A stretch of 64,000 nt of DNA from Pseudomonas phage SW_PA2862_11_24: sequence record PV574406.1; one strand, 5' to 3'. Positions 8,519 through 9,500 of this stretch are shown in pieces (the first letter of the stretch is position 1; every line of letters begins with the position of its first letter). The notes below the pieces were generated by a model. The model was not told the origin of the DNA. It did not search any database and saw only the letters and a list, made by a program, of their open reading frames with translations. A program made the translations under genes and the position numbers.

Positions 8519-8697
8519 CATGGCAGGGGTTATTTTCAAATTATTTTTAGATTTCTGGGAGTTTCGGCCAATATGGGCAATATGAAATTTCTCAGGAAAA
8601 GGCTCAGAATGCTCGTATAAGAGCCGTTCGAGTGTAGGTATGGTGAGCTACTACTTAGCCGTAGAAGGACAGTGTAACGCTTAATAGGAGGGTTAGA

Positions 8698-8871
8698 ATG
8701 AAGATTGACAACGGTAGCGCGTATGCGTATTGGCTAGCGGATATGAAAGAGTTTGTTTCTCAGATGGATGCCACAGAGATTGAGAAGAGGGCTTGTATAG
8801 CATACTTAATTAGCTGGTATCAGCGAAGAGTACTGCACAGAATTAAACGGGAGGAATACGAGGCGATCTAA
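8698..8871 (+). CDS. hypothetical small protein (57 aa)
   Basis: RBS AGGAGGG; lies inside the repeat-rich non-coding region. Confidence 0.35.
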   Translation: MKIDNGSAYAYWLADMKEFVSQMDATEIEKRACIAYLISWYQRRVLHRIKREEYEAI

Positions 8872-9030
8872 GCTAGGGACCGGACAGATTTTTAGGGACT
8901 GGATAGATTTTCACAGGCTGCAAAATTAGGAACTGGGCAGATTTTTAGGAACTGGACAGTTTTTCACAGAAGGGGATTTTTCTACAGAGGAATTTCCCCT
9001 GAAATTTAGCCGGATTTCTCAGAAGGGCGG
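8871..9030. repeat. iteron-like direct repeats (about 6 copies of GGRYAGATTTTTMRG; ATTTCTCAGRAA also at 8587 and 9014)
   Basis: GGACAGATTTTTAGG / GGATAGATTTTCACAG / GGGCAGATTTTTAGG / GGACAGTTTTTCACAG read directly. Confidence 0.6.
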
Positions 9031-9034
9031 ATCG

Positions 9035-9085
9035 TTAGCAGGCTATCTAATTGGTTAGCAAGCTACCTTTAATCGTTAGCACACT
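9035..9085. repeat. three phased GTTAGCA boxes (~21-bp spacing)
   Basis: cgTTAGCAgg, ggTTAGCAag, cgTTAGCAca. Confidence 0.45.
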
Positions 9086-9435
9086 AACTAAAAATTCCTA
9101 GGACGGACCTCAGTTGGCACGAACGTTGCAAGCCCGCACCAGTTTCCCGGGCAGGCGTAGGCCTCGACTATCCGTCGTGAAGGCGATATGTAGTTGGGGA
9201 CTCGCACCCCGCGTTTAAGATGCGCCCATTCTACTATGACAAACCCCTTTGTCAACATAATTTTTATGGCACAGTCTTTGCAATTGCAATTAGCGTGCCA
9301 GCTTAAATCTCAGGCTCCCTCGGTGTTTATCTCCGGTGCTCGGCCTCCTGCCTGCGTTGCCCGCCTGCCTGTCATTATACACAAGCTATCAAGACAAGCA
9401 AGAAAAATTATAGAGAAAAATCTACATAAAACAGG

Positions 9436-9464
9436 TTGACAGGCCTCCTTTATATATGCACAAT
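9436..9464 (+). promoter_or_regulatory. sigma70-like promoter TTGACA-N17-CACAAT
   Basis: upstream of SprT-like gene. Confidence 0.5.
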
Positions 9465-9500
9465 GACCCCCACATTCAACGGAACGGCAGGTAAGCAGCC

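Follow-up and report, generated by a model that had tools for sequence, protein, structure and literature searches.

A conserved iteron-bearing region at the edge of the early-gene cluster of Pseudomonas phage SW_PA2862_11_24, tentatively read as a boundary or loop anchor with embedded promoters

The locus considered here covers positions 8520-9500 of a 64,000-nucleotide stretch (hereafter the window) from Pseudomonas phage SW_PA2862_11_24 (PV574406.1). It lies between an open reading frame (ORF) of 328 amino acids (aa; 7489-8475) and a SprT-like gene starting at 9501, and displays 99.8 % identity to the corresponding region of phage LPS-5. The window genome is that of a Pseudomonas aeruginosa Pakpunavirus, i.e. 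a PAK_P1/PAK_P4/JG004/PaP1-like myovirus with a genome of ~92 kb, of which the 29 kb outside the window were taken from LPS-5. The region was matched in 127 phage records, every one of them a Pseudomonas phage. An earlier note, made from the letters alone, had described it as a non-coding candidate origin of replication or master control region, and the latter description suits it well: it is a unique, ultra-conserved hub with binding repeats of several kinds, three or more promoters and a small RNA known from RNA-seq annotation, situated at the edge of the early-gene cluster. Tentatively, we favour a cis-acting element that is bound by proteins, has promoters embedded in it and delimits this cluster on its upstream side as a boundary or loop anchor; this is quite possible, if somewhat short of an even chance.

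The left edge is marked by an intrinsic terminator on the plus strand (8496-8518; stem scan hit 8496-8513), with a seven-bp all-GC stem followed by a T-run, which ends the operon of the 328-aa ORF. A terminator is also annotated at the equivalent place in the record of PAK_P4 (99 % identical). Terminators had been claimed for both edges; this was true of the left one only, the right edge being occupied by a strong early promoter (9436-9464).

The central repeats are four 19-bp direct iterons (TAGGRACYGGRYAGWTTTT), detected by repeat search on the plus strand at 8874, 8893, 8927 and 8946 (span 8874-8964). The array originated by a 53-bp duplication of an iteron pair, and the core CTSGACAGATTTT is common to the whole phage family. 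With up to three mismatches, the 16-nucleotide consensus ACTGGACAGATTTTTA was matched six times in the 64-kb window, against 0.53 expected. Its four matches with up to two mismatches all fell inside 8879-8966, and no further copy at this threshold was found in the ~92-kb genome (window plus 29 kb of LPS-5). The motifs quoted in the earlier note, namely GGACAGATTTTTAGG (8882), GGATAGATTTTCACAG (8901), GGGCAGATTTTTAGG (8935), GGACAGTTTTTCACAG (8954) and GGGATTTTTCTACAG (8973), were all in place; its count of about six iteron-like repeats came down to four good copies and one degenerate copy. The latter (GGGGATTTTTCTACAG) is accompanied on the plus strand by an inverted repeat GGGGA...TCCCC and by the second copy of ATTTCTCAGAAGG (together 8971-9026). 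These columns were conserved at 98-100 % in an alignment of 15 Pakpunaviruses that were 80-97 % identical to the window over 1.8 kb. The repeated ATTTCTCAGRAA was likewise found as reported, at 8587 and 9014.

The 11-nucleotide iteron core GAACTGGACAG has two extra copies, both on the minus strand (20564-20574 and 50445-50455). The inverted core at 20564, 250 bp left of the terminal repeat, was considered as a partner site and discarded, being absent from phage C11. A role of the iterons as dispersed promoter motifs was dismissed in view of the lack of any other occurrence in the genome. Scanning IMG/VR with exact iterons returned single chance matches only, while a two-iteron pattern recovered members of the family plus unrelated tandem repeats. 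Three unrelated viral contigs (L135, L159 and L162) displayed tandem CCGGACAGATTTTTG repeats with the same core as the first iteron, those of L162 being situated within a gene-free gap of ~0.9 kb; these similarities could be due to chance or reflect recognition by a common binding protein. The many GGA motifs of 8874-9035 also raised the idea of a plus-strand RNA sponge for RsmA. This was rejected since KoPa-4 has an intrinsic terminator between its small ORF and the iterons, and was further disfavoured by PAK_P4, which has no annotated plus-strand transcript, and by a fold only marginally better than shuffled sequences (z = -1.9).

To the right of the iterons lie three 14-bp palindromes of the form GWTAGC-NN-GCTAWC (9034-9088), with centers 20-21 bp apart. 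They contain the three phased GTTAGCA boxes already noticed at 9034, 9054 and 9075, with a spacing of 20 and 21 bp. With at most one mismatch and a two-nucleotide spacer, these three were the only such palindromes genome-wide; other sites with a GWTAGC-type arrangement of half-sites were confined to the terminal repeat and its vicinity. Both the palindromes and the iterons exceed chance and are, in these forms, unique within the ~92-kb genome. Two of the three boxes are perfect palindromes in phage EM (GATAGCTGGCTATC and GTTAGCTCGCTAAC), and related boxes were found in KoPa-4 and NoPa. The differences between EM and the window retain the symmetry of the DNA and not the pairing of an RNA, which argues for a dimeric DNA-binding protein; the boxes look like operator or enhancer sites for such a protein.

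Twenty-seven bp right of the boxes, the plus strand displays an exact match to the -24/-12 consensus of sigma-54 promoters (TGGCACGAACGTTGCA, 9115-9130). It is retained in EM as TGGCACGAACGTTGCT, and each of its columns was invariant in the 15-genome alignment. Two further elements face each other, TGGCACAGTCTTTGCA on the plus strand and TGGCACGCTAATTGCA on the minus strand, and form a 34-bp palindrome (9267-9300). The palindrome TTGCAATTGCAA singled out in the earlier note (9278-9289) proved to be the center of this structure, where the two -12 parts are joined; the GC-rich block listed beside it was also recovered (60-62 % G+C at 9100-9200). Exact matches to TGGCAC-N5-TTGCW in the region were thus located at 9115 (+), 9267 (+) and 9285-9300 (-). 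Allowing one mismatch, 11 matches were counted in the window, against 1.9 expected. All of them lay at 9.1-21.9 kb, with clusters in this region and at 20950-21900, and none was found in the remainder of the genome. A 13-mer of the 9267 element (TGGCACAGTCTTT) also occurs at 10232-10247, within the DUF7449 gene, where the -12 part is altered (TTTACT). Across the 15 genomes, TGGCAC and TTGCAA were invariant while the five-nucleotide spacers varied, which is the footprint expected of a bipartite site. The minus-strand element is located 28-29 bp upstream of a sigma-70 -35 box in both the window and KoPa-4, and EM and PAK_P3 displayed a minus-strand TGGCAC-type copy in the corresponding region.

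These elements invite the view that the locus is an enhancer-dependent switch, in which the palindromes would be activator sites and the TGGCAC-N5-TTGCA elements RpoN promoters, offering a second, signal-dependent route rightward to the early genes or leftward to the small RNA described below. Five exact TGGCAC-N5-TTGCW matches, all in two regulatory loci, compare with ~0.06 expected; the variable spacers are flanked by invariant positions, namely the GG and GC dinucleotides and the extended TGGCAC[GA] and TTGC[AT]; the 9115 element has the three palindromes 27-95 bp upstream of it; and the pairing of box and element recurs in the terminal regions of the window phage and of KoPa-4. Enhancer sites at NorR- or NtrC-type promoters have a layout similar to that of the palindromes upstream of the 9115 element. 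However, the GAFTGA signature of enhancer-binding proteins gave no match in any frame of the phage genome. The face-to-face elements overlap, which makes their joint occupancy impossible and is reminiscent of one palindromic site; the internal element is on the plus strand in Pakpunavirus and on the minus strand in KoPa-4; and several of the terminal-repeat matches fall inside an HNH ORF. No RpoN requirement was found in the searched literature. A switch of this kind is considered quite unlikely, although it can coexist with a boundary. The elements may be working RpoN promoters, sites of parked holoenzyme or sites of another protein.

A leftward sigma-70 promoter (TTGACA-16-TAGAAT, minus strand, 9228-9255; scan score 11/12) coincides with promoter_03 of PAK_P4 and precedes a small non-coding RNA (9094-9221, minus strand), which is the counterpart of PAK_P4as16. 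This RNA crosses the GC-rich block in the direction of the boxes and iterons and has a T-run (9090-9094) at its end. In PAK_P4 (KC862300), as16 was annotated by RNA-seq as a minus-strand non-coding RNA at 55650-55850, corresponding to ~9094-9294 of the window (PMC5563952); this annotation is coverage-based, with rounded coordinates. Its function was listed as "not determined" (PMC12197685). The promoter is kept as TTGACT-17-TATGAT in EM and as TTGACT-17-TAGAAT in KoPa-4 and NoPa. A second leftward promoter-like site (TTGCTT-16-TATAAT, minus strand, 9374-9401) was read from the sequence by eye, with equivalents in PN09 (TTGTAT-16-TATAAT), KoPa-4 (TTGTGT-16-TATAAT) and EM (TTGCTT-16-TATTCT). Rightward transcription is represented by the strong early sigma-70 promoter already mentioned (plus strand, 9436-9464), which was identified by promoter scan, equals promoter_04 of PAK_P4 and opens the early-gene cluster. 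It is kept as TTGAC-N17/18-TAGAAT in EM, PN09, KoPa-4 and PAK_P3. Directly to its left, a nearest-neighbor free-energy scan located the least stable 60-bp duplex of the 64-kb window, an AT-rich stretch (9374-9433) with 77-91 % column conservation that is separated from the iterons by 400 bp and by the GC-rich block. This stretch may act in DNA unwinding or as a UP-like part of the early promoter.

The as16 sequence was ~99 % conserved in the 15-genome alignment. Between EM and the window, its stems are retained with altered loops, including one compensatory change (GGGG/CCCC to GGAG/CUCC), which represents one evolutionary event only. A strongly structured RNA was rejected, the fold being no better than that of shuffled sequence (z = -0.6), as was pairing with phage mRNAs, for which complementarity was not above chance. 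A known RNA family or a tRNA-like element was also discarded: the best Rfam E value was not below 0.5 and the tRNAs called by ARAGORN all lay at 42.4-45.4 kb. In as16, the 5' hairpin (GGGGUGCGAGUCCCC, 9196-9210, minus strand) is one base away from the T-arm GGGGTTCGAGTCCCC of the phage tRNA-His (45114-45128); no tRNA is called there by ARAGORN. Phage pPA-3099-2aT.2 is of Pakpunavirus type on the left and of EM type on the right, with the switch inside the ultra-conserved as16 block (equivalent to ~9195-9500), and this mosaic suggests that the block may serve as a recombination joint.

Constraint was unevenly distributed. Variable columns amounted to 8 % in a T-rich block at 8527-8615 (block A, see below) and to 13 % at 8872-9235, which holds the iterons, the boxes and the small RNA. 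The corresponding values were 42 % at the end of the upstream coding sequence, 50 % at 9236-9500, 63 % in a 57-aa ORF (8698-8871) and 74 % in the SprT-like gene. The little variation seen in the conserved blocks was devoid of codon periodicity, and together these two properties are strong evidence, from sequence comparison, that the blocks function at the DNA or RNA level.

Similarity to more distant phages was limited. The core of the region matched phage EM (84 % identity), while Otagovirus PN09 and the P. putida phages KoPa-4 and Kassivere were matched via the iterons alone. The loci of EM, PN09, KoPa-4, NoPa, Psxphi15, phiPsa300 and PAK_P3 were compared by reading. A common order emerged: lineage-specific T-rich repeats, a small unrelated ORF, iterons, boxes, a leftward sigma-70 promoter, a TGGCAC element, a conserved block and the early promoter. 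It was most complete in EM, KoPa-4/NoPa and the Nankokuvirus PAK_P3, which display little other DNA similarity to the window. Three to four iterons on the same strand and at the same position were present in EM, PN09, phiPsa300, KoPa-4, NoPa and PAK_P3, with spacings of 18-34 bp. The leftward sigma-70 promoter was found in Pakpunavirus, EM, KoPa-4 and NoPa. TGGCAC-N5-TTGC was on the minus strand in EM, KoPa-4, NoPa and PAK_P3, and just upstream of the sigma-70 promoter in the window, EM and KoPa-4; PN09 and phiPsa300 displayed one plus-strand copy with one mismatch, and Psxphi15 none. In the Otagovirus loci compared, the iterons are retained along with the conserved block and the early promoter, and no GWTAGC box was found. 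The conserved block itself (CTCCCTCGGTGTTTATCTCCGGTGCTCGG...CTGCGTTGCCCGC, 9313-9372) was lined up by eye between the window, EM, PN09, KoPa-4 and PAK_P3, i.e. across four genera.

Part of this inventory would also suit an iteron-type origin, where a phage initiator would bind the iterons, the as16 promoters would activate or prime, the nearby duplex would melt and the circularized genome would replicate in theta mode. The 19-bp iterons are tandem, in a single orientation, unique in the genome and conserved in the family; a conserved sigma-70 promoter is directed at them; the least stable duplex of the window lies within the region; and the locus is found just downstream of nucleotide-metabolism genes, which themselves follow the replication genes. 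For PAK_P3, the Hi-C coverage seen at 7-10 min points to theta replication with one start site, the position of which was not stated (PMC13510664).

Several features nevertheless fit poorly with an origin. There is no adjacent initiator gene, the 328-aa and 57-aa neighbors being without initiator match, although a distant initiator is possible. The AT-rich stretch is remote from the iterons, beyond the GC-rich block, and poorly conserved, and iteron spacing differs among lineages within the 18-34 bp given above. Inspection of the sequences revealed no conserved DnaA or IHF (integration host factor) sites; the one relaxed DnaA match (TTTTTCACA at 8960) was discounted, as it is not conserved in PN09 or KoPa-4. 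Cumulative GC skew does not turn at 9 kb, and the authors of the PaP1 genome placed their putative origin at the genome end, on the weak evidence of GC skew. The searched literature mentions neither iterons nor a mapped origin for this phage family, and the sole experimental data on the homologous locus concern a DNA-folding anchor at 3 min, before replication (PMC13510664). An origin is hence regarded as a possible but rather unlikely function. It is compatible with a boundary role, as the two do not exclude each other.

The second locus with matching motif families is the direct terminal repeat (20816-21987) with its flanks (20550-22112). The repeat was mapped by blastn to the experimentally determined 1173-bp repeat of phage C11, with 94 % identity. 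The window contains a single copy, which indicates that it was assembled across the genome ends. According to the annotation of C11, the 200-aa ORF in the repeat (21157-21759) encodes an HNH endonuclease. Sigma-54-type matches of this locus include those at 20950, 21442 and 21883, and palindromes GATAGC-N3/4-GCTATC were found at 20652, 20925, 21111 and 21804. A further palindrome, CTTAGC-TGTC-GCTAAG, lies at ~21901, and several of the terminal palindromes appeared, by eye, just downstream of promoter-like sequences, in an operator-like position. T-rich motifs like those of block A (CATTATTTT and ATTTCTGGGAGG) recur at the right edge of the repeat (21935-22112, compared with 8480-8562).

The association of element and palindrome was also encountered in the terminal gene-free gap of KoPa-4, and a face-to-face TGGCAC pair in that of PN09. 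Terminal-gap palindromes took other forms elsewhere: GAAAGC-N3-GCTTTC in PN09, AAAGC-GTA-GCTTT in KoPa-4 and GGCTTC-GWM-GAAGCC in PAK_P3. The terminal gap of PN09 also contains CATTATTTTCATTTTAC within a 129-bp tandem duplication.

Region and terminal repeat are 11.3 kb apart, and the interval is filled by small early genes; Henry et al. described it as an "11-kb variable region" in which early promoters are repeated (PMC4309531). Given the position of the repeat at 20816-21987, the two loci bracket this 11-kb early cluster. The same mapping eliminated the region itself as a terminal repeat or packaging end, since 12-14 kb separate it from the right end of the PaP1 and C11 genomes; in PaP1, with 91.7 kb in total, it occupies 78.2-79.1 kb.

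A structural counterpart is available in PAK_P3, where Hi-C at 3 min post infection revealed that a 14-kb early-gene region forms a loop or hairpin-like structure, the tips of which are two gene-free loci, one of them at the termini (~63 kb) (PMC13510664). Between 44 and 68 kb, PAK_P3 displays two gene-free gaps of at least ~0.5 kb, 50570-51081 and 62817-63739, the latter at the termini. The former, the only one at a distance that suits the loop, opens with three iterons (GGTACTCGACAGATTTTCAC) and has the early promoter at its end; a box (GTAGCTCCCTATC), an element on the minus strand (TGGCACAGCTATTGCA) and the conserved block are also present in it. Genes gp081-083, to its right, match positions 10052-11007 of the window at 72-78 % amino-acid identity. 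The region thus is, like a loop tip, a gene-free locus at the edge of the early cluster, and it is homologous in position and sequence to the PAK_P3 gap. It is most probably the positional and sequence homologue of the internal loop anchor of PAK_P3, the anchor being equated with the iteron gap from the gene map.

What tips the balance towards a boundary or anchor is the combination of motif families common to both borders of the cluster, the folding of PAK_P3 DNA before replication and the control-type content of the region. DNA-binding factors would occupy the iterons, the GWTAGC palindromes and the TGGCAC-N5-TTGCA elements soon after DNA entry; such factors may be encoded by the phage, delivered with the virion or supplied by the host, whose RNA polymerase with sigma-54 is one possibility. 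The second site would be provided by the terminal repeat, 11-13 kb away, with its related palindromes and TGGCAC-N5-TTGCA elements nearby. The two loci would be bridged, or both would act as untranscribed barriers, and the early cluster would thereby be folded into an isolated loop or domain. The strong sigma-70 promoter at the right edge would start rightward early transcription, while one or two leftward promoters would make as16, which may end at the palindromes and shield the iterons from transcription.

Beyond the homology with the PAK_P3 anchor, we infer that the motifs would be sites of anchoring factors, which kinds of factor these may be, and that bridging, rather than a transcription-driven domain, would isolate the cluster. 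The more specific proposition is that region and terminal partner are sequence-defined anchors that fold the early cluster into an insulated loop within minutes of entry, with iterons, palindromes and sigma-54-type elements as sites of architectural factors, either delivered by the virion or including parked host sigma-54 holoenzyme; it is put forward as a conjecture that is rather doubtful.

A number of observations weigh against an anchor. The Hi-C paper gives no coordinates for the PAK_P3 anchors; their equation with the iteron gap comes from the gene map, surveyed at 44-68 kb. The loop was observed in another genus, and its anchors were described as untranscribed, whereas the locus is transcribed here (as16). 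The two loci share 12 exact 10-mers, against a control mean of 5.3 and a control maximum of 12, a value at the top of the range and not above it. Within PAK_P3, the terminal palindromes are unlike anything in the internal gap. The iterons are not common to the terminal locus of the window phage, the lone inverted core at 20564 being absent in C11. Transcription alone can yield a loop-like Hi-C signal.

The distance to the genome end also suggested a signal that pauses DNA entry: the right end would enter first with ~13 kb of early genes, and the locus would stall further transfer, leaving a segment that is isolated in Hi-C. The locus does bound the early cluster, at a distance of ~12.5-13.5 kb from the right physical end. 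In the two-step injection of phage T5, the stop site lies in repeat-rich non-coding DNA. However, the early class also includes genes on the left side of the locus (PAK_P4 gp080-091), and the literature consulted reports no stepwise entry for this family, though no search was aimed at it. Such a pause signal appears very improbable.

Block A (8527-8615) is made of T-rich short repeats: three TTATTTT, ATTTCTGGGAG, two CAATATG (8571 and 8580, the duplicates of the earlier note) and ATTTCTCAGGAA. A -10-like TATAAG box (8615-8620) lies just downstream, and the block probably is a regulatory or promoter region of the small ORF that follows. Lineage-specific versions occupy the same place in PAK_P3 (four GATATTTG), KoPa-4 (TTATTTC/G) and PN09 (CTTACTTTT).

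The small ORF encodes 57 aa (8698-8871, plus strand). The region had been called non-coding with only a doubtful 57-aa ORF inside; most of it is non-coding, but the doubt was probably misplaced, since the ORF has an AGGAGG ribosome-binding site (8686), a match to phrog_8175 (E = 5e-41) and a constant length (174 nucleotides in 15 of 15 genomes). Its N-terminal half evolves fast while the C-terminus is conserved. The copy of PAK_P4 displays an in-frame stop (RAW*AY instead of RACIAY), which reflects either a dispensable gene or an error of the record; the gene is probably real but dispensable. Other lineages have unrelated small ORFs in this variable slot. The 57-aa protein has no match to initiators in Pfam, NCBIfam or PDB.

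As for the 328-aa protein to the left, tblastn detected relatives of its N-terminal ~185 residues in Bacillus SPO1-like phages, jumbo phages and Lak megaphages (E down to 1e-12), and its C-terminal part was found in Pseudomonas phages only. Pfam, NCBIfam and PDB gave no match except a non-significant Myb-like hit (E = 0.34), and no homologue was found in the 24 kb of PAK_P3 around the iteron-bearing gap; on both counts it was rejected as an initiator. Elsewhere in the window, 14 tRNA genes are clustered at 42483-45399, all on the plus strand.

Few Pseudomonas phages are used as widely in therapy as the Pakpunaviruses and their relatives. No other non-coding DNA in the examined part of the genome is as constrained as this region, which recurs in at least four lineages infecting three Pseudomonas species and borders the variable early region, where gene swaps and deletions are commonest, which concerns phage engineering. 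It offers mutable sequence elements for the study of the PAK_P3 loop as well as a defined candidate for origin mapping. If its sigma-54-type elements were functional, a virulent phage would be using an alternative sigma factor of its host, which is unusual; if the anchor interpretation were true, the motifs would represent the first cis-element grammar for three-dimensional genome organization in a phage.

The as16 annotation, the early promoter repeats, the terminal repeat and the PAK_P3 loop, given without its sequence determinants, are already known. The searched literature was silent on the iterons as an array, on the palindromes and on the sigma-54-type elements, as well as on the restriction of these motifs to the borders and their conservation in the family. 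The closest annotated counterpart is the locus of PAK_P4as16, with 99 % identity, whose non-coding RNA and promoter_03 correspond to ~9094-9294 and 9228-9255 (PMC5563952). It was listed there among 17 antisense RNAs, yet no gene lies opposite, and the surrounding iterons, palindromes and sigma-54-type elements were not described. The PAK_P3 anchor (PMC13510664) is similar in being a gene-free gap at 12-13 kb from the termini that has the same iteron core and the first strong early promoter immediately to its right. It belongs to another genus, is shorter (0.5 kb), was described as untranscribed and lacks an as16-type RNA, and the paper did not report motifs.

Iteron origins such as lambda ori, P1 oriR, RK2 and pPS10 likewise have three to four tandem repeats of ~19 bp that occur nowhere else in the replicon, close to promoters and to a stretch that melts easily. 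In contrast to these, the region has neither an initiator gene next to or overlapping the repeats nor conserved DnaA boxes, its AT-rich stretch is not contiguous with the repeats, and its non-iteron motifs are common to a second locus. Sigma-54 promoters (glnAp2 with NtrC, norV with three NorR sites) share exact -24/-12 elements and tandem palindromes tens of bp upstream; here, the elements are found in a virulent phage with no recognizable enhancer-binding protein, overlap face to face and vary in orientation by lineage. Finally, the 41-nucleotide early promoter repeats of PAK_P1-like phages (PMC4309531) occur in the same neighborhood, and the promoter at 9436-9464 opens their 11-kb region. 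Those repeats, however, are sigma-70 promoters scattered through the early region, whereas the iterons, boxes and TGGCAC elements are confined to its borders.

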